Assembly: GCA_022511145.1 (NCBI GenBank)
Contig: JAFLSC010000002.1
Location: forward strand, 4,208-68,207
DNA: 64,000 nucleotides
Direction: 5' to 3'
From: Helicobacter sp.
Lineage (GTDB): Bacteria; Campylobacterota; Campylobacteria; Campylobacterales; Helicobacteraceae
Made by a program: the position numbers and the translations under genes
The notes under the pieces: generated by a model
What the model was told of the DNA's origin: nothing
The model's database searches: none
What the model saw: only the letters and a program-made list of their open reading frames with translations
Shown: one piece after another, positions 1,954 through 43,007 of the stretch
Layout: each line of letters begins with the position of its first letter
Numbering within the stretch: position 1 is the first letter of the stretch

Positions 1954-2805
1954 TTACTTTTTTTGAGCTAGGATATACAAGGGATTGTAGGTTAAGGTAT
2001 TGTTAAAATCTTTTTGCAGGGCGGATAAAATTTGCTTTGTAATTTTAAAATTTGGTTTTAGGGCATTCACACCACTTTGTTTTAAGTGCCAAAAAGCCTC
2101 TAAGGGAGTGTTAAAATGCAATTTCTCCTGCCTCTCAAAAAGAGTGAGGATTTCCCATTGAGGAGCAAGGATTTTTTGATATTCCTCTAAGGTAAGATAA
2201 TCTAACCCACAACCGCATAATAGCCGAATCTCTTTAAGATTTTCTAACCCAAAAACCCCTAAGGCTAACACGCCACCTTGATAAGTAATGTAAGGCAAAA
2301 ACTCCAAAATCTCTTTTTGGTTTCCCCATTGTAATGCTGCATTAGAAAGTATCAGATGATTTTTTTGGCAAGAAAAAAGCATTTTAAGCAGAGAAAAATC
2401 CTCCATATCCGCACAAATAAACTCCACCTCACTTTCCCTAAAATAATCTGAAAAATCAACAATATCCAAAGCCCTATAAATCTTATATTCTAAAATTCCT
2501 AAAGCTTTTTTTGTCAGCATTCCGCTCCCACAACCTAACTCCAAAACATTCTCATAATATAAGGGCAAATGAGTTTTTAGCAACTCTAAAAGCGTGGATT
2601 GCATTTTATCTTGAATGAGGGCATTTTGGTTATAAGTAGAACTTGCTGCTAAAAAACTTCGGGTAAGATTTTGCTTTAGTGTAAGATTTGGTTTGAGTGT
2701 GGGATTTTCTTTGGGCTTAGGGGGAATATTATCCTTTAGTTTGGGTGATTTAGCGGGATTTTTGATATTTTTAGACTCTAGCAGGCTAGACTTCTTAGAA
2801 GCCAT
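1954..2805 (-). CDS. bioC: Malonyl-ACP O-methyltransferase BioC with a basic N-terminal extension
   Basis: FLAASSTYNQNALIQ, LELGCGSG SAM motif, SNAALQW; lies in a bioF-esterase cluster. Confidence 0.85.
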   Translation of the reverse strand: MASKKSSLLESKNIKNPAKSPKLKDNIPPKPKENPTLKPNLTLKQNLTRSFLAASSTYNQNALIQDKMQSTLLELLKTHLPLYYENVLELGCGSGMLTKKALGILEYKIYRALDIVDFSDYFRESEVEFICADMEDFSLLKMLFSCQKNHLILSNAALQWGNQKEILEFLPYITYQGGVLALGVFGLENLKEIRLLCGCGLDYLTLEEYQKILAPQWEILTLFERQEKLHFNTPLEAFWHLKQSGVNALKPNFKITKQILSALQKDFNNTLTYNPLYILAQKK

Positions 2806-3467
2806 TAAAGCCCCCTAAACAAATCTTGCAAATGAAAAAACGCAAAATGCGGAGCATCAAGAGATATGATTTGCGTTTTATGGGGATAAAAGTCGCTCCA
2901 AAAGCGGATTTGATTTTGTGAGGAAAAAATCAAATCATTTTTAGAAATTATCACCTTATCCCAAATCAAGTTTTTTTGAGGGCTACTTTGATGATTAAGT
3001 AGGCTTTTAAGCTCCTCTTTAAGCTCTTTTTCTTGCAAGAAAACATAATCTTTAGGGATTTCACCTAAAAAAAGATTTTGCAAAAATGCTTTTAAATCAA
3101 ATCTCTTAAGCGTAAGTGCAAAAAGTTTAGGCGGGATTCCGTATTGCTTATCAATCCCAAATTCTGTGCCATTAACCGCAATCTTTTGTGTGATTTGCGA
3201 TTCCTCAACGCCCCATTCTACAATCGCCTTATTTGCTACCCAAACTCCCATTGAAAAGGCTATTATGCTTATCTTTTTGTAACAAGCAAAAAGCTCAAAA
3301 ACTTCTTTTAGGGATTCTAAATCCAAACAACGATAATCACTAATGCAAATCCAATCTAAAGTTTTAGGGACAAAAGGGACAAAATGGCTAAAATGCCCTG
3401 CAAATCCTGCAAAGATTACTAAAAGTTCTTTATGATTGTTGGTGCTGCGATAAATATTCACTCTCAA
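2805..3467 (-). CDS. Pimeloyl-ACP methyl ester esterase (BioG/DUF452 type alpha/beta hydrolase)
   Basis: AFSMGV nucleophile elbow, NGT motif, C-terminal PHF; between bioF and bioC. Confidence 0.7.
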   Translation of the reverse strand: MRVNIYRSTNNHKELLVIFAGFAGHFSHFVPFVPKTLDWICISDYRCLDLESLKEVFELFACYKKISIIAFSMGVWVANKAIVEWGVEESQITQKIAVNGTEFGIDKQYGIPPKLFALTLKRFDLKAFLQNLFLGEIPKDYVFLQEKELKEELKSLLNHQSSPQKNLIWDKVIISKNDLIFSSQNQIRFWSDFYPHKTQIISLDAPHFAFFHLQDLFRGL

Positions 3468-4650
3468 TCTCCTTTAAAACACTCACAAGCTCTTGTAACT
3501 TTTCTTTGGGCATTGCACTTGTTAGTGAAAAACGCAAACAAGCTTTGTTTTTAGGCGTTGTGGGAGATTTTATAGCCGGAGAGAAAAATCCCTTTTGTGC
3601 TAAAGATTGCTGAAAAAATAGGGCTTTGTGATTAGTTTTTAAAACCAAGCTTATGATATTATAATCCCCCAAAACTTCATAATCTAACGCTTCTTTGAGC
3701 GATTTTTTAAAATTATAGCTTAGATTTTTGAGATGATTTCGCCTTGTTTTAAGATTTGCTAATTTTTGAAAATTAAAGAAACTTAATGCCACATTTAAAG
3801 GGGGCAGAGCGGTAGAGTAAATCAAACTCCTTGAATGATTGATAAAAAATTCACGATATTTTTCCCCGCACAGCACGCACGCCCCTACACTTCCCAAAGC
3901 CTTACCAAAAGTCAAAACCAAAAAATCAATCTCCCCTAATAAACCAAGCTCGACACTAAGCCCCAATCCCTTATCGCCAAAACTACCAATACTATGGGCT
4001 TCATCAAGATACAAATAAATATTTTCATACTTTTGCTTTAATGCAACCAAAGCCTTTAGGGGAGCAAAATCTCCTTCTATGCTAAAAAGCCCCTCACTAA
4101 GCACCACAATATTTTCATAATTTTTACTCTCTGATAAAATTGCTTCTAAATGTCGCATATCCTTATGATTATACCGCTTAAATGCCACTTTTTTAAAGCT
4201 TCTAAGTCCATCAAGACAACTTGCGTGAATGGATTTATCAGCAACAAACAAAGTATTTTTAAGTCCCGCTAAGCTTGAGAGAATACCCACATTAGCGTGA
4301 TAACCGCTATTAAAAAGTAGGGCTTTTTTGGGGAGTAGATTCTGCGGTGCGTTATAGGATTTAAAAGTCTGCTCCAAAAATTCTTCAAATTCTCCAAAAA
4401 TTAAAAAATTTCCACTCAAACTTCTTGAAGAAGATGCACTTAAATAAAGATTTTCACGATAAAGCCTAGAGGAGAGAAATTCACTTTTAAGCTCCTCATC
4501 ACAAGCAAGATTCAAATAATCATTGCTCGCACAATTAAAGAGCCAACTTTTTTGTGTTGCAATCCATAATCCTTGGTGTTTTTGAGGGATAAATCGGCGG
4601 TAATTTTGCTCTTTCTCTAAAGTCTCTAAGATTTTATCAATTTGTTTCAT
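3430..4650 (-). CDS. bioF: 8-amino-7-oxononanoate synthase
   Basis: NCASNDYLNL, DEAHSIG, TFGKALG (PLP lysine). Confidence 0.9.
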   Translation of the reverse strand: MKQIDKILETLEKEQNYRRFIPQKHQGLWIATQKSWLFNCASNDYLNLACDEELKSEFLSSRLYRENLYLSASSSRSLSGNFLIFGEFEEFLEQTFKSYNAPQNLLPKKALLFNSGYHANVGILSSLAGLKNTLFVADKSIHASCLDGLRSFKKVAFKRYNHKDMRHLEAILSESKNYENIVVLSEGLFSIEGDFAPLKALVALKQKYENIYLYLDEAHSIGSFGDKGLGLSVELGLLGEIDFLVLTFGKALGSVGACVLCGEKYREFFINHSRSLIYSTALPPLNVALSFFNFQKLANLKTRRNHLKNLSYNFKKSLKEALDYEVLGDYNIISLVLKTNHKALFFQQSLAQKGFFSPAIKSPTTPKNKACLRFSLTSAMPKEKLQELVSVLKEIESEYLSQHQQS

Positions 4651-36836: not shown

Positions 36837-37672
36837 CTATTTGTTTTTCTCTAAACTGAAATTGCTTATCAAAAGTTCTGCTCCTTTTGCTGCCTGCATT
36901 TGCTTATAATTATTCATTCCATATTGCAAAGAATATTCGTATACATAAAAATCCTTATAAAGATTTCGTATCAACTCGCTATCATCATAAGTGAGTAAGA
37001 ATTTATGTTTTGTGTTTTTGAGATTCTCACAAAGTTTTTGATGATTAAAGCTTGTATGCAAATCCCCCTTTTTACCATAGAGCCTTGACTTTGTAACCGA
37101 ATAATAAGGCGAGTCTAAAAAAAAATAAAAACATCTTTGCCTTATTTTTGCAAGAGATTCTCATAGCTTTCATTACTAAAAATAAAATTTTGCAAGATTG
37201 TATCTATATTTTTAAGTCTCTCAATAGAGCTTTGTGTAAAGCGAAATTCAAAGGCTTTTTGTGAATATCCCCCACAATCAACCACTCCTGAAAAAGTAAT
37301 GCGATTGAGTATAAAAAAATCCACAGCTCTTTGAAAATCGCTCATTTTAGAATTTCTACGCTCTATTAATGCCCTATAGAGTTCTTTTCCATTTTTAAAT
37401 TTATCTTTTATATGTTGAATCTCATTGATAAGTTTTTCAGTTTGTGTTTTTAACATCTGCCAAAAACAATACACATCATAATTCAAATCACTCGCAAAAA
37501 ATTGAAGCTCTTTTTGCCTAAAATGTATTTGCGTGAGATAGATTCCAATACTCCCACCACCAAAAAATGGTTCTCTGTATTCTTTAAAATTTTGAGGAAA
37601 ATACCTTTTTAAAAATTTAATAGCCCTTGATTTAGCACCGGGATAACGAAGCGGGGATTTAAGATAAATCAC
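36837..37672 (-). pseudogene. Second Dam-family (D12 class) adenine methyltransferase, inactivated
   Basis: SPLRYPGAKS N-terminus; premature TAA at 37144-37142; A9 tract at 37117-37125 out of frame; catalytic motif reads DSPY. Confidence 0.85.
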
Positions 37673-38271
37673 CGCTTGACTTCTCCTCTTTTCACAATTT
37701 TGTCTCGCACAGAACTATTTTTTAGAATCTCGGCGTGTTCAGTTTTAATATCTGTTGGCCAATCCATTCCCTGTTCTTGCACATTCCATTCAGGGTATTT
37801 GCCATTTTCAATCCTTAAATAATCCTCTACACAGCTTTGCTTGATGAGTTTGTAAGAAATGTAGGCATTTTTCACTTTCTTAATCCCAAACAATCCTTTA
37901 ATATCCTTTTCAAAATTCTCTTGATAAATCATATAGAATTCTATTTTCTTGCCCTCTAAGATTGTGTAATAAAGAAAATACCAAATCCCAAAACTTCTTA
38001 TGCCAGGTCGTCCTTTTGTCCCACCGTCGCGATAAATAGACAAAGTATTTTTAATTCCTCCTTTACTTTGACTCCCTCCAATCTTTTTAATCTCGCCATC
38101 AACAACAATTAAATACACTCTAGCGACATTTTCAGTAAGAATTTTTTGAGGCAGAGCATTGCCATTTTCATCTTTCAAATCTTTAAGATAGTTAAAATTA
38201 AGCCTTGTGCTTCCCTCCACATACTCTACATCAGCAATTTTAAAGGCAGTTTTTACTTCACTTATTTTCAT
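37669..38271 (-). CDS. GIY-YIG-type (Hpy188I-like) restriction endonuclease
   Basis: RVYLIVVDGEIKKIG resembles the Hpy188I-type LVY..KIG motif; C-terminal YPEWN; flanked by two MTases. Confidence 0.6.
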   Translation of the reverse strand: MKISEVKTAFKIADVEYVEGSTRLNFNYLKDLKDENGNALPQKILTENVARVYLIVVDGEIKKIGGSQSKGGIKNTLSIYRDGGTKGRPGIRSFGIWYFLYYTILEGKKIEFYMIYQENFEKDIKGLFGIKKVKNAYISYKLIKQSCVEDYLRIENGKYPEWNVQEQGMDWPTDIKTEHAEILKNSSVRDKIVKRGEVKR

Positions 38272-38273
38272 CT

Positions 38274-39302
38274 CTACTCCTTTATAATCAACAATTCGTG
38301 GCTTTGCTTAATATTATCCCTATTGCCTTGTAGTCCATTATTACGATTGAGGCGATTTTTGCCTACTCTTGTTTCGCCTTGCCCCATTGTGTATTGCCAT
38401 TTGGGTTCTAAGATTCTAAAATCTTTATATGTTTCCCTTACAAACTCACAATCATTATAGCTTAAGATAAACTTCCCTTTGTGATTTTTTAAATATTTAC
38501 TTAAGAGTTTATGATTAAAGCCATTATGATGAATAGGGAAATTTCGCATAGGATAGATTCCCTTAAACATTTGAGAATCCCCCTCTAAAAAATACGGTGG
38601 GTCGCAGTAAAAAAAATCATTAGGGTAGCTTTCAAAAACCTGCTCAAAACTCGCACATTCCACACTTATATTTTGCAACTTGCAATCTTGCCCTATATCT
38701 TTTAATTTTTCTAAAGTTTTTTTGTAGCGAGTTTTATCTTCATAAATTTTACTCATCCAGCCTAAAAAGCCGGGTCCATAGCTTAAATTAAAATTAAAAT
38801 AATAATCGCGTGCAAGCGTGAGGGAATCGAGCTTGATTTGAGCAGTATTTTGCGAATCTTTATGCCTCTCATTCCAATAGGCTTTAAGTTCCTCTTTTAT
38901 CTCTGTATAGGTTTCTTTTGTAGGTTCAAGTTTCAATAAAGCTTCATAAAGTCCATTAGAATCTGCAATCAAAATTTGCCAAAAATTCACCAAAATATCA
39001 AAGACATCAAAAGCCTTCACTTCTAATCCAAGTTCTAAAGCACTTGCGATTTCAACACTTCCTCCGCCCATAAAGGGGCTAACAAGTCGCTTTATATCAT
39101 TTGGGAAGTGTTCTATTATCAAGCCAACAGCTAGAGATTTGCCTCCTCCATAACGCAAAGGACTTTTGGTATAGCGTTTATAGGAGAGAGATTTGCCTTT
39201 GAGAGAATCCAAAAAGAGAATTTTTTTGTCAGTAAGAGAATTATTTTGGTAAAAAAGATTTTGCCAGTCTTCGTAGGAAGTTAAGGCAACTCTAGCTTCC
39301 AT
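38274..39302 (-). CDS. Dam-family DNA adenine methyltransferase
   Basis: SPLRYGGGKS, SPFMGGGS, DPPY. Confidence 0.9.
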   Translation of the reverse strand: MEARVALTSYEDWQNLFYQNNSLTDKKILFLDSLKGKSLSYKRYTKSPLRYGGGKSLAVGLIIEHFPNDIKRLVSPFMGGGSVEIASALELGLEVKAFDVFDILVNFWQILIADSNGLYEALLKLEPTKETYTEIKEELKAYWNERHKDSQNTAQIKLDSLTLARDYYFNFNLSYGPGFLGWMSKIYEDKTRYKKTLEKLKDIGQDCKLQNISVECASFEQVFESYPNDFFYCDPPYFLEGDSQMFKGIYPMRNFPIHHNGFNHKLLSKYLKNHKGKFILSYNDCEFVRETYKDFRILEPKWQYTMGQGETRVGKNRLNRNNGLQGNRDNIKQSHELLIIKE

Positions 39303-39305
39303 ATC

Positions 39306-39405
39306 TCACAGCTCGCTTTTCAATACTGCGCCATTAGCAGCGTTGCTCACAAGCAAGGCATATCGCTTGAGCCATTTGCTTTGAATCTCTTTTTGATGGC
39401 TTCCA
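39306..39405 (-). repeat. Diverged duplicate of the ilvD 3' end (direct repeat of 41313-41414)
   Basis: 78/84 identity over 39306-39389 vs 41313-41396; encodes [27 protein letters not shown]. Confidence 0.95.
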
Positions 39406-39444
39406 ACACACACTTTGTTTTTTAAAACTAAAACCCATTTCATA

Positions 39445-40641
39445 TTAAATCCTTTGTTTGATTTTACTATAAATATCGCCAAAACTAGAATCTAACATAC
39501 AATTCTCTAGGCTTCTTTGGGAAAATAAAAATCGTCCATCACACACAAAACCCAGCTCTTCCCAATCTATATCATTAAGTCTTATGCATAATTCTTGTAA
39601 AAATCTAGAATTCACTTCAAATTTTGGAAAAATCGCCAAAACAGAGCCATCATAAGCATTGCAAGAATGAATAAAAAAAGGCTTTTTATTTCGGGTTTTC
39701 GTATTGACATAGATTCGTGGCTGTTCGCTTTTGTAATAGTCTCTGCCCCATTGCCACCAATTATTTTCATCAAATTTTTTAATTCTTCTTTGTATCAATC
39801 TTTGTTTAAATTCTTGCAAATATACACAATCTTTGGCATAAATTCCATAAATCATTTTTTTTGTTTTACCGCTTTTTGCTGTGGTAGAATTTACAAATTC
39901 TACATTACCCCATTGTTTATTAGCAAAAATAGAATCTGCCCCGCTCACTGCTCCAACTTTAACAAAGAACAATGAGCTAAAAGGAATGTTGTAAGATTTT
40001 TTAGTAAAAAGAATCTGCCCATTGATGCAACTAAATTCCCTCAAACATTGTGTTTTTCGCCTAAAATTTCCCTTTTCAAATCTCCATATGGCACAATTAG
40101 GTTGAGCTTTGTTAAAAATCTTCCTATCCCCCAAATCTATAAAATCTGTTATGCTGCCTTGTGAGAATAAAAACTCATTGAGTTTTATACTTGCTGTGCT
40201 TTTTAGAAAATCTCTAGGCGTGATAAAAATCAGCTCGCCTTTATCTTTTAAATGTAAGATACACTTATAGATAAAAAATAAATACAAATTTGAGCGAGAA
40301 TCAAAGATATTCTTATAGGCATTTAAAAGGAATTTCGTAGAATCTAAAATATCTTGATAGCGCACATAAGGAGGATTGCCAATAATACAATCAAATTTTT
40401 CGCTTACAGGATAGCTAAAAAAATCAACCTTCAATATAGATTTATCGCAAATCAATTTAGAATCTAGCTCTATGCCTATTTTGTTGTTGGGTAAATTTTC
40501 AAAAAAAGCTCCATTTCCACAGCTTGGCTCTAAAAATCTAGGATTTTCTAATTTTGTGCTACTTTGGATAAGATTTAACATATCACTTACAATATGTGGT
40601 GGTGTAAAAACTTGTCCTAAATTTATTACATCAAGATTCAT
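39445..40641 (-). CDS. Type II N6-adenine methyltransferase, HP0910/M.HpyAIX (HindII-like, GTNNAC) family
   Basis: LGQVFTP, EPSCGNG, IGNPPY, SNLYLFFI, ITPRDFLKST, VKVGAVSG, WEELGFVC.GRFLFSQRSLEN match HP0910 as I recall it. Confidence 0.85.
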   Translation of the reverse strand: MNLDVINLGQVFTPPHIVSDMLNLIQSSTKLENPRFLEPSCGNGAFFENLPNNKIGIELDSKLICDKSILKVDFFSYPVSEKFDCIIGNPPYVRYQDILDSTKFLLNAYKNIFDSRSNLYLFFIYKCILHLKDKGELIFITPRDFLKSTASIKLNEFLFSQGSITDFIDLGDRKIFNKAQPNCAIWRFEKGNFRRKTQCLREFSCINGQILFTKKSYNIPFSSLFFVKVGAVSGADSIFANKQWGNVEFVNSTTAKSGKTKKMIYGIYAKDCVYLQEFKQRLIQRRIKKFDENNWWQWGRDYYKSEQPRIYVNTKTRNKKPFFIHSCNAYDGSVLAIFPKFEVNSRFLQELCIRLNDIDWEELGFVCDGRFLFSQRSLENCMLDSSFGDIYSKIKQRI

Positions 40642-41254
40642 AAAAGTATCTCTTAAAATGGAGGTAGGCTTCAGCTCTTAATTGCAAAGATTTTTCAAAA
40701 AATCCAAGCAAAAATGTTTTTGCGCTTTCAAAATCTCTTATAACAATATTACGATTATTGTCCCATTTTGCCTGAAAGGGTAAGTTGTTCCCATTTGGCA
40801 AAATGTTTTCTAAGCTTTTAAGTGAAGTAACAAAAACATCACTAGAGCTATCTTTGTTGATAATCAAAAAATAATAATCTTTTGTATTTTCTTGTATATT
40901 TTCTTTAAGATTTTTGAAATAGCAATCCCAACTTACGCCATTGCCAAAAGGCGGAATCTTGCCTGTTAGAGCATAATATATACCAAGTTTGCAGTTAAGA
41001 TTATCCGTAGTTTTTGTTGTGCTTACCTTGATATTTACAGGACAAAATATCCCATTTTCTTTAAAAGCAAAATCAAACCAATCACGCATATTTGGTCGAT
41101 TGATAGCAAAGTTGGATTCCAAAATATTAAAAATCTCATCTTCATTAAAGGCAGAGTTTATTCTGCCATCTCGACTTTGCTTAGTTAAAGTAATAGGATT
41201 TTCTTTTAAAAATTCTACGATTTGAATAAGCAAAGTTGGCATTACTTGAGTCAT
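40631..41254 (-). CDS. Type II restriction endonuclease, HP0909/Hpy8I-like (GTNNAC)
   Basis: DGRINS..NE, W.DFAF, PVNIK, DNLNCKLGIYYAL, PNGNNLPFQAKWDNN; overlaps its MTase. Confidence 0.75.
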   Translation of the reverse strand: MTQVMPTLLIQIVEFLKENPITLTKQSRDGRINSAFNEDEIFNILESNFAINRPNMRDWFDFAFKENGIFCPVNIKVSTTKTTDNLNCKLGIYYALTGKIPPFGNGVSWDCYFKNLKENIQENTKDYYFLIINKDSSSDVFVTSLKSLENILPNGNNLPFQAKWDNNRNIVIRDFESAKTFLLGFFEKSLQLRAEAYLHFKRYFYES

Positions 41255-41312
41255 TTGTTCATCGCTCTTATATGGCTTCAATCAGAATGAGTTTCTTACT
41301 TGTTGTCATTGT

Positions 41313-43007
41313 TTATAGTTCGTTTTTCAACACTGCGCCATTAGCAGCATTGCTCACAAGCAAGGCATATCGCTTGAGCCATTTGCTTTGAATCTCCTTT
41401 TTAAGAGGTTTCCATTTTTTGGCTCTCTCCTCCAAAATCTTAGAATCCACACACAATTCCAAGCTCCCCTTGCTCACTGAAATAGCAATTTTATCGCCAT
41501 CTTCAATAAGTGCAATCAATCCCCCTTCCGCAGCTTCTGGGCTAATATGCCCGATACACGCCCCACGCGTTGCCCCACTAAAGCGTCCATCGGTAATTAG
41601 TGCTACGCTATTACCTAGCCCCATTCCCATAATCAAACTTGTGGGGCTTAGCATTTCTTGCATTCCCGGTCCCCCCTTAGGTCCCTCATAGCGGATAACC
41701 ACTACATTTCCTGCTTTGACTTTGCCCCCGGCAATGCCCTTAATGGCTTCTTCTTGGGAGTTAAAGCATATTGCCGCTCCCTCAAATTCTTTCATAGATT
41801 CTGCTACAGCGGCGACTTTTAGCACTGCTCCTTCTTTGGCGAGATTCCCATAGAGGATTTTTAAGCCCCCCACAGGCGAGTAGGCATTCTCATTGTGGCG
41901 AATGACATTAGAATCCGCAATCTCCGCGCCTACAATGCGTTCGCCCAGCGTCTCGCCCGTAATTGTAAGCGCATCAAGATAAAGGACACAATCTCCTCTT
42001 TTTGCCACTTCATTCATTACCGCCGATACGCCCCCCGCTCTGTTAATATCCTCCATATGAATACTACTCAATGCAGGAGCGATTTTGGCGATGTGGGCGA
42101 CATTTTGAGCGATATTGTTAATGGATTCTAGATTGAAATGAATTTCGGCTTCTTTAGCAATGGCTAACATATGTAGCACCGTGTTTGTGCTGCCCCCCAT
42201 AGCCATATCCACGACAAAGGCATTATGCACGGCTTTTTCATTGAGAATATTGCGGAATCTAAATTGTTCGCTCAAGGCAGAATCTAAGGCGATTTCTACA
42301 ATTCTCCTTGCAGCTTTGCGTAAAAGCTCTTCGCGTTCTTTGGTAAGTGCAGGAATCGTGCCATTACCCGCTAGAGCCACACCCATAGCCTCACAAAGTG
42401 TGTTCATTGAGTTTGCAGTAAACATACCGCTACAGCTTCCTCCGCCCGGACAAGCCTTACATTCTATCTCGTGCAGTCTTTTTTCATCAATCTTGCCTTC
42501 TGCGTAAGCCCCTACTGCTTCAAATGCGGAGTTTAAATCTAAAATCGTGCCATCTGCGAGTTTTCCTGCCCTCATAGGACCGCCACTTACAAAGATTGTT
42601 GGCACATTCACACGTAATGCTCCCATTAGCATTCCGGGCACGATTTTATCGCAATTAGGAATGCAAATCATCGCATCAAGGGCGTGAGCATTCATCATCG
42701 TTTCAATACTATCGGCGATGAGTTCGCGGCTTGGCAATGAATAGAGCATACCACTATGCCCCATAGCAATCCCATCATCAACGCCAATGGTATTAAACTC
42801 AAAAGGCACGCCACCGGCTTTTCTAATCTCCTCTTTGATAATTTGTGCATAACGATTAAGAAAAAAATGCCCCGGAATAATATCGATATAGCTATTTGCT
42901 ACGCCAATAAAGGGTTTATTGAAATCTTCATCTGTTAAACCCGTAGCACGTAATAAACTCCTATGCGGGGCTTTTTGATAGCCTTTTTTAATGATATCAC
43001 TACGCAT
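41313..43007 (-). CDS. ilvD: Dihydroxy-acid dehydratase
   Basis: [38 protein letters not shown]. Confidence 0.98.

Follow-up and report, generated by a model that had tools for sequence, protein, structure and literature searches.

A restriction-modification cassette bracketed by copies of the ilvD 3' end in Helicobacter: probable import through an older, cassette-borne copy of its target

We analyzed a 64,000-nt stretch of a Helicobacter sp. genome (GCA_022511145.1, contig JAFLSC010000002.1, positions 4,208 to 68,207 of the forward strand; hereafter, the window), focusing on a restriction-modification (R-M) gene pair that lies directly downstream of ilvD and is bracketed by two copies of the ilvD 3' end. 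The genome holding the window, referred to here as G000, is a 1.64-Mb draft in 78 contigs. According to the open reading frame (ORF) list and Pfam matches, all genes of interest at the locus are on the minus strand. The resident ilvD (41313..43007) is complete and encodes a dihydroxy-acid dehydratase of 564 aa (Pfam ILVD_EDD_N, E 1.8e-129; ILV_EDD_C, E 6e-76). It is followed, after a spacer of 58 nt that includes an 18-nt gene remnant (41292..41309, ATGACAACAAGTAAGAAA), by R1 (40631..41254), an intact type II restriction endonuclease (REase) gene of 207 aa counted from the ATG at 41254, with a HincII/EcoRV-like fold in an AlphaFold2 model. M1 (39445..40641), which overlaps the R1 stop, encodes a gamma-class N6-adenine methyltransferase (MTase) of 398 aa (Pfam Eco57I, 1.9e-22; N6_Mtase, 5.2e-10). 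Beyond M1 lie a 7-nt linker carried with the cassette (39438-39444), an old, diverged piece of ilvD tail matching ilvD residues ~521-535 (39395-39437) and the orphan, downstream repeat copy (39306..39394), which includes its own TGA at 39306-39308. A second R-M system is stacked behind this tail, composed of M2 (38274..39302; a D12-class, Dam-like N6-methyladenine (m6A) MTase of 342 aa, Pfam MethyltransfD12, 8e-45), the REase gene R2 (37669..38271; 200 aa, assigned from the NCBI names of its homologues) and M3 (36837..37672), another D12-class MTase gene that is split into pieces of 176 and 74 aa, both with Pfam matches. Beyond M3 is a convergent asparagine-synthase-like gene.

A repeat search returned a single outstanding direct-repeat family in this region, 39310-39394 against 41317-41401 (the upstream, resident copy within the ilvD 3' end), 85 nt long, 94% identical and 2007 nt apart. 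The runner-up direct repeats in the 3.1-kb region reached at most 24 nt at 72-80% identity, and the 85-nt repeat occurs in exactly two copies in the entire genome. When 41313-41396 was aligned with 39306-39389, 78 of 84 positions were identical, with a longest perfect run of 47 nt; the six differences were AAT/AAC (N), GTG/GTA (V), GAA/GAG (E), CTA/CTG (L), AAC/AGC (N>S) and TAA/TGA. A first-pass annotation of this DNA had described these bracketing repeats, with four synonymous changes, one N>S replacement and a TAA/TGA swap, and our recount agreed with it exactly. The weaker homology that it had noted upstream of the repeat was also found, and reaches about 39437/41440 at roughly 50-60% identity. 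As it had further remarked, the orphan TGA stands 3 nt before the next methyltransferase: it is followed by GAT and then by the M2 ATG at 39302.

The 1922 nt between the two copies hold only R1, M1 and the gene remnant. R1 and M1 are both full length, so that R and M homologues both lie inside the insert, and the cassette has a GC content of 31% versus 45% for ilvD. Between 34.7 and 43.6 kb, no ORF or Pfam match indicated a transposase, integrase, prophage or recombinase. Transposon-type ends were not seen at the cassette, where all inverted repeats were 27 nt or shorter with 70-93% complementarity, and the target is the 3' end of a protein-coding gene rather than a tRNA or att-type site.

One possible source of such an arrangement is assembly error, in which mis-joined contigs of mixed strains would misplace the repeat or the cassette. 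The draft is fragmented into its 78 contigs, and related metagenome samples hold both occupied and empty variants of the locus. Against this, an 85-nt repeat is shorter than usual reads, and a metagenome contig from a separate MEGAHIT assembly (L091; ENA ERZ27293309) is 100% identical to the window over both repeat copies, even though it stops only ~125 nt upstream of the repeat. A Logan assembly of a different run (L093) has the same M1-tail-M2 arrangement, and the complete PacBio genome of H. typhlonius shows a homologous tail-X-R1-M1-tail architecture, where X is a gene described below. The first-pass annotation had named an assembly artefact as a possible undoing of its proposal; given the identity of L091 over both copies and the arrangement in L093, we regard an artefact as very unlikely and give it next to no weight.

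The same annotation had supposed that ilvD was once joined straight to the next methyltransferase, and such an empty site does exist. It is present in two assemblies: L076/L092 (G134:C76; GCA_022511165.1, JAFLSB010000078.1), found by a family-wide search with the 49-aa ilvD C-terminus, and L094 (ENA ERZ27293329), found by look-up of close R2 variants. In both, the order is ilvD-TGA-GAT-ATG-M2 with one copy of the 85 nt, and the flanks are 97.6-99.1% identical to the window. Positions 1-424 of L076 correspond to window positions 41740-41317 (98.8%) and positions 339-1887 to 39394-37847 (99.1%); the overlap of these two matches is the 85-nt repeat, present once. The M2 protein of the window is 100% identical to that of L076 and 99.5% identical to that of L094, an 11.3-kb contig in which ilvD is directly followed by M2, R2 and an intact M3. 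The look-up that returned L094 also returned L093, an 88-kb Logan contig (SRR10504708) representing a second occupied site. In this contig (L093:3867-4018) the island, consisting of the X remnant, R1, M1, tail, M2, R2 and M3, follows an aminotransferase gene, and since only the last ~20 nt of ilvD are present, either ilvD was deleted there or the island was relocated.

Comparison of the occupied and empty alleles revealed that the resident ilvD differs from the L076 empty allele at none of 388 nt and then at 9 positions in the last 42 nt (41311..41352). These nine differences, which define what appears to be a donor-type ilvD end, take in the stop codon (TAA for TGA) and the first flanking bases, and L094 shows the same 5 mismatches to the resident ilvD up to 41317. 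By our own calculation, the chance that all 7 mismatches in the aligned 424 nt would fall within the last 36 nt is about 3e-8. From marker e418 through M2 the orphan copy, in turn, shows no difference from the empty allele, its 3' part being the empty-site allele, and just upstream it differs at three markers. Two markers read T and C in both empty-site assemblies, as opposed to C and T in both G000 copies and the L093 orphan; the tail allele of both empty-site assemblies at the markers reads T/C/G/C.

The genes on either side of the orphan copy differ in the same way. Relative to the occupied L093, identity is 99.84% for R1 and 99.0% for M1, and falls to 98.25% for M2, 96.85% for R2 and 94.6% for M3a. 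In the empty-site genomes R1 and M1 are absent, and M2 (99.5-99.6%), R2 (98.3-98.6%) and M3a (96.8%) are closer to the window than those of L093. Because the cassette is L093-like and the backbone empty-site-like, the window locus is, on these comparisons, a recombinant whose switch points would lie within the two repeat copies. Taken together, the clustered differences in the resident copy, the empty-site allele in the 3' part of the orphan and the contrast between cassette and backbone show that the two copies have different allelic histories, which upholds the earlier suggestion that they came from different ilvD alleles through horizontal arrival.

The age of the downstream copy became apparent from the M1 3' end. 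Conservation among M1 homologues stops after ...MLDSSF (residue 387), and the sequence beyond this point depends on context. A common linker (AAAGGATTTAAnnATGAAA) succeeds the M1 3' end in eight copies and leads into an ilvD tail that begins near residue 521 (VDS; alignment A3). These eight junctions are distributed over six genomes: G000, G016, two metagenome-assembled genomes (MAGs) with two copies each (L057 and L058), H. aurati and H. typhlonius. From the start of R1 through the orphan tail, G000, L057, L058, H. typhlonius and H. aurati (the last from within R1) are ~85% identical. Furthermore, the G000 orphan is a mosaic: its first ~45 nt are of cassette type, with 26 of 53 positions identical to the resident ilvD, and its last 87 nt, with 80 of 87 identical, are of the local allele. 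Since the M1-end/ilvD-tail junction is common to six genomes, the duplication predates this insertion; these alignments demonstrate that the downstream copy of the repeat existed before the insertion into this backbone, and this copy would travel with the cassette. For the same reason, the cassette carried an older ilvD tail with it, and it most likely entered by homologous recombination. We had also considered that each orphan tail might be an independent in-situ duplication, as suggested by the resemblance of each orphan to the ilvD allele of its own genome. We abandoned this view in light of the shared M1-linker-tail junction together with the mosaic identity pattern.

A further component of the related cassettes is gene X, which encodes ~205 aa with a weak Pfam HEPN match and lies between the ilvD tail and R1 (L057:5376-5990, L058:5377-5985, L080:1897-2495, the last in H. 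typhlonius), starting 1-3 nt past the tail stop codon. G000 and L093 retain only its first 18 nt, the remnant noted above, and therefore share a deletion; blastn homology between the window and L057, L058 and L080 stops at 41292-41300. A role for gene X as an accessory or abortive-infection-type partner of the R-M pair is possible. In addition, both MAGs (L058:5150-5380 and L057:5150-5380) contain an M1 3'-end remnant with linker and tail upstream of a complete X-R1-M1-linker-tail unit, as would be expected from a tandem duplication by unequal crossing-over in which the first copy was subsequently replaced.

It has been previously reported that R-M genes can be inserted with long target duplications (Nobusato et al. 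2000, Gene 259:99; Furuta, Abe & Kobayashi 2010, PMC2853133). Repeats in those cases measure 46-423 bp and often include a start or stop codon; the hosts are for the most part naturally competent, and the mechanism was left open (PMC2853133). The first-pass annotation placed the window locus in this class, and its anatomy agrees with all descriptive criteria of Furuta et al. 2010 (PMC2853133): R and M genes lie inside, the insert is below 20 kb and carries no mobility genes, the repeats exceed 30 bp and are neither multicopy nor tRNA sequences, and a relative has an empty site. One could accordingly suppose that the cassette alone entered at the ilvD stop and that some mechanism, for example staggered breaks ~85-130 nt apart followed by fill-in, duplicated the local tail, with a repeat that spans the stop codon as in many of the published cases. 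A fresh duplication of this kind predicts two copies of the local allele, and this is not the pattern found: the last ~40 nt of the resident copy are foreign, with 9 differences as opposed to 0 in the preceding 388 nt, and the ~45 nt at the upstream end of the orphan are an old, ~50%-identical ilvD fragment connected to M1 through a linker also conserved in five other genomes. We therefore consider a de novo duplication at this site improbable. The description as an insertion with long target duplication thus holds for the anatomy of the locus and fails for its origin, in that the duplication was not made from the recipient's target by insertion into this genome: the resident 3' end is foreign and the 5' part of the orphan is an old shared tail. 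The original, ancestral event may nevertheless have been a target-derived duplication.

The explanation that we favor, and that we hold to be probable, is that a cassette of a HincII-fold REase and a gamma-class m6A MTase was imported into a single ilvD tail by homologous recombination through an older tail that the cassette itself carried. The original junction between M1 and an ilvD tail would have arisen once, earlier, in some Helicobacter, either by illegitimate joining or in a true long-target-duplication event, and since then the duplicated tail would have acted as a portable homology arm. The donor would have been a linear fragment consisting of an ilvD 3' end, the gene X remnant, R1, M1, the linker and the old ilvD tail, most likely taken up by natural transformation. 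In a recipient with ilvD followed directly by M2, two homologous crossovers would both have fallen inside its single ilvD tail, on the left at a point upstream of 41352 and on the right within orphan positions 39316 to 39323. Such a double crossover would regenerate the appearance of a target duplication without special insertion machinery.

The 47-nt perfect identity between the copies could also permit excision or amplification. An alternative is the opposite direction of events. Under this alternative the occupied state is ancestral, L076 and L094 lost R1-M1 by recombination between the 85-nt repeats, and there was no recent gain in the window genome. The perfect run is long enough for RecA-type recombination, the empty allele agrees 5' with the resident copy and 3' with the orphan, as a deletion product would, and the cassette-plus-tail block is old and widespread. 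The number of events required on the four assemblies is two under either direction. What speaks for import is, first, that two markers read T and C in the empty-site assemblies and C and T in L093 and both G000 copies; these shared alleles fit import of a cassette with flanking tails better than two independent excisions. Second, the empty-site assemblies combine an orphan-type with a resident-type marker in the wrong order for one crossover, so that, with the two markers just named, excision would require three extra mutations within 85 nt. Third, the cassette is 99.0-99.8% identical to that of L093, compared with 94.6-98.3% for the adjacent backbone, which is nearer to the empty-site genomes, and this again fits import better. 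Finally, loss of an active R-M pair would be counter-selected through post-segregational killing. We thus judge excision unlikely, while crediting it with more weight than either a de novo duplication or an artefact.

Several points weigh against import through a cassette-borne tail. The direction, gain as opposed to loss, would rest on few informative sites in four assemblies, the alleles of the donor are free parameters of the crossover model, and natural competence of the window species is assumed. L093 is not the actual donor, as it differs from the G000 orphan at two markers. In addition, L076 lies in a MAG, G134, whose housekeeping genes are only ~70% identical to those of the window genome (cysS 70%) and in which the context upstream of ilvD is unrelated to it. 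L094 provides an empty site that is independent of G134.

The composition of G134 deserves separate description. Despite the 70% identity of cysS, its ilvD, M2 and R2 pieces (L076, and L090 at G134:C49:9414-9761) are 99% identical to those of the window. An initial view of G134 as a conspecific strain was dropped on account of cysS. Given this value and the unrelated upstream context, the L076 contig was either transferred or mis-binned, and the ilvD-M2-R2 contigs of G134 would reflect either a recent inter-species transfer, in which a housekeeping gene moved with its R-M neighbor, or mis-binned or chimeric MAG contigs.

The first-pass annotation had also labeled the cassette as GTNNAC-type. 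R1 gave no Pfam, NCBIfam or PDB sequence match, and phmmer against all PDB sequences detected no homology to HincII or any other entry at E<=1. In an alignment of 14 sequences, that is, with 13 homologues besides itself, R1 is full length. Its AlphaFold2 model (predicted local distance difference test score, pLDDT, 85.8) was compared with the PDB using Foldseek, and ranks 1-31 were all HincII (GTYRAC), followed by EcoRV, with probabilities of 0.97-1.0 and a template modeling (TM) score of ~0.44. The predicted structure thus has a HincII-type PD-(D/E)XK fold, with HincII as its best structural match in the PDB and yet no sequence similarity detectable between the two. The M1 translation shows the motifs FLEPSCGNGAF and GNPPYV and is therefore of gamma class. 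Homologues of M1 at 76-91% identity have been given purely generic names ('N-6 DNA methylase' or 'class I SAM-dependent methyltransferase'), none of which indicates a specificity.

Further information came from H. typhlonius (G137), in which R1 and M1 homologues, 83% and 91% identical respectively, lie right after ilvD. The single-molecule real-time (SMRT) methylome of this species includes GTNN(m6A)C, a motif that the supplement assigns to no gene. The GTNNAC system of H. pylori is HP0909/HP0910, which was reported to be inactive in strain 26695 (PMC3936762). R1 homologues (E ~1e-80) are present in most H. pylori-group genomes at ~0.85-0.97 Mb, many with a premature stop, which fits this reported inactivity; HpyAIX (HP0909/HP0910; Hpy8I/Hpy166II isoschizomers, GTNNAC) would be among the known systems closest to the cassette. 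The GTNNAC label is reasonable because the R1 model matches HincII and because H. typhlonius, with a 91%-identical M1, has GTNN(m6A)C methylation. Two considerations count against it: H. typhlonius has 18 MTases, which makes the link to GTNNAC indirect, and the TM-scores of the HincII matches are modest. On the model and the methylome, then, GTNNAC specificity is plausible but unproven.

In the second, stacked system, R2 had no Pfam match and no PDB sequence match, the Hpy188I entries included; its homologues in Campylobacter and Helicobacter are named 'type II restriction endonuclease' by NCBI. M3 is intact in L094 (277 aa) and in L093 (257 aa), and since the gene is whole in these two assemblies, the split M3 of the window is a recent pseudogene of the M2-R2-M3 system.

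The presence of two stacked systems had led the first-pass annotation to regard the ilvD 3' end as a landing pad for R-M genes, and the survey of relatives bore this out on a larger scale. Of 25 genomes of the genus, 6 have orphan ilvD tails, and two or three tails are present in at least 15 of the 93 ilvD-bearing Helicobacteraceae genomes. The homology of orphan tails always ends at the ilvD stop codon, and its upstream limit ranges over residues 457-537. Relatives have more than 10 different R-M types downstream of ilvD. The products of the immediate downstream genes include C5 and N4/N6 MTases, HNH endonucleases, PabI-like, EcoRV-like, HaeII, DpnII and BsaWI-like REases, Hpy99I-like nucleases, a type IIG enzyme and a type I-like M/S pair. 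R1-M1 itself directly follows a complete ilvD in H. canis, H. didelphidarum, H. bilis, two MAGs and Ca. H. avicola, with no second ilvD tail detectable in these genomes, and it is located elsewhere than at ilvD in nine genomes. Judged by gene order, the region of the ilvD stop codon is a family-wide landing pad at which putative R-M cassettes are stacked, with an ilvD tail ahead of each and as many as three tails per genome. Our literature search found no paper describing an ilvD-linked R-M hotspot in Helicobacter.

Three additional observations concern ilvD and its tails. In a seventh genome of the genus (G015; L055, oriented 2624-3487), the C-terminus of an N4/N6 MTase is read from a 13-residue orphan ilvD tail, a gene fusion that is a product of the same kind of stacking. 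In H. typhlonius, a third ilvD tail (L080:7571-7894; residues 457-564, 88% identical) is found in inverted orientation ~3 kb downstream of the cassette, which implies inversion between tail copies. In many Helicobacter species, residue ~338 of ilvD is followed by an in-frame insertion, variable and of low complexity, of ~40-230 aa, giving open frames of up to 791 aa (seen in, for example, L039 (G001), L043 (G017), L046 (G022), L050 (G013), L038, L044 and L055); this insertion does not look like an intein.

How the ilvD locus relates to known systems can now be considered. With the published long target duplications it shares a small R-plus-M unit without mobility genes, long repeats that are unique in the genome, a single copy at the empty site, a spanned stop codon and an epsilonproteobacterial host from a naturally competent group. 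It differs in that the downstream copy in the window is older than the insertion and moves with the cassette, and in that many R-M systems have reused the ilvD target, in at least 15 genomes and with stacks of up to three tails. As far as it is described in PMC2853133, the E. coli hsd/ICR locus (Sibley & Raleigh 2004) is similar in that alternative, unrelated R-M systems occupy one position between conserved genes and are exchanged through flanking homology; at ilvD, in contrast, cassettes accumulate in stacks instead of merely replacing one another, with partial copies of the 3' end of the upstream gene between them. Amplification of R-M units between long direct repeats, as summarized in the same article (its ref. 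84), likewise involves repeats that flank an R-M unit, and MAG L058 has an M1-linker-tail remnant before a complete X-R1-M1-linker-tail unit; the window differs in holding a single cassette, with no amplification seen. These comparisons of the ilvD locus point to homologous recombination through a cassette-borne copy of the target. A broader proposal, to which we give somewhat less than an even chance, is that ilvD tails, far from being passive scars, do the work in a cassette array that needs no recombinase of its own: every R-M cassette of the Helicobacteraceae would travel with an ilvD 3' homology arm, and natural transformation and RecA would suffice to insert, stack, swap, amplify or excise cassettes at ilvD in whatever species possesses this gene.

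Catalogues of R-M insertions with long target duplication go back 25 years, and a mechanism has been missing throughout. The locus described here adds something new, a fresh and well-controlled instance in an enterohepatic Helicobacter, in which the duplicated target appears to travel with the cassette and one target is reused by many systems. If the array proposal holds generally, many published long target duplications would have been propagated by homologous recombination instead of being created at each insertion, which would account for the mechanism that has stayed open since 2000. The ilvD locus offers an unusually complete natural series, comprising empty and occupied alleles at 98-99% identity, a 99-99.8% identical cassette in L093, a cassette-borne target conserved across species and a family-wide hotspot, and this series makes the hypothesis of a portable homology arm directly testable by transformation. 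For gut Helicobacter, the locus shows how repertoires of defense genes, and hence methylomes and barriers to gene flow, are reshuffled beside a housekeeping gene.

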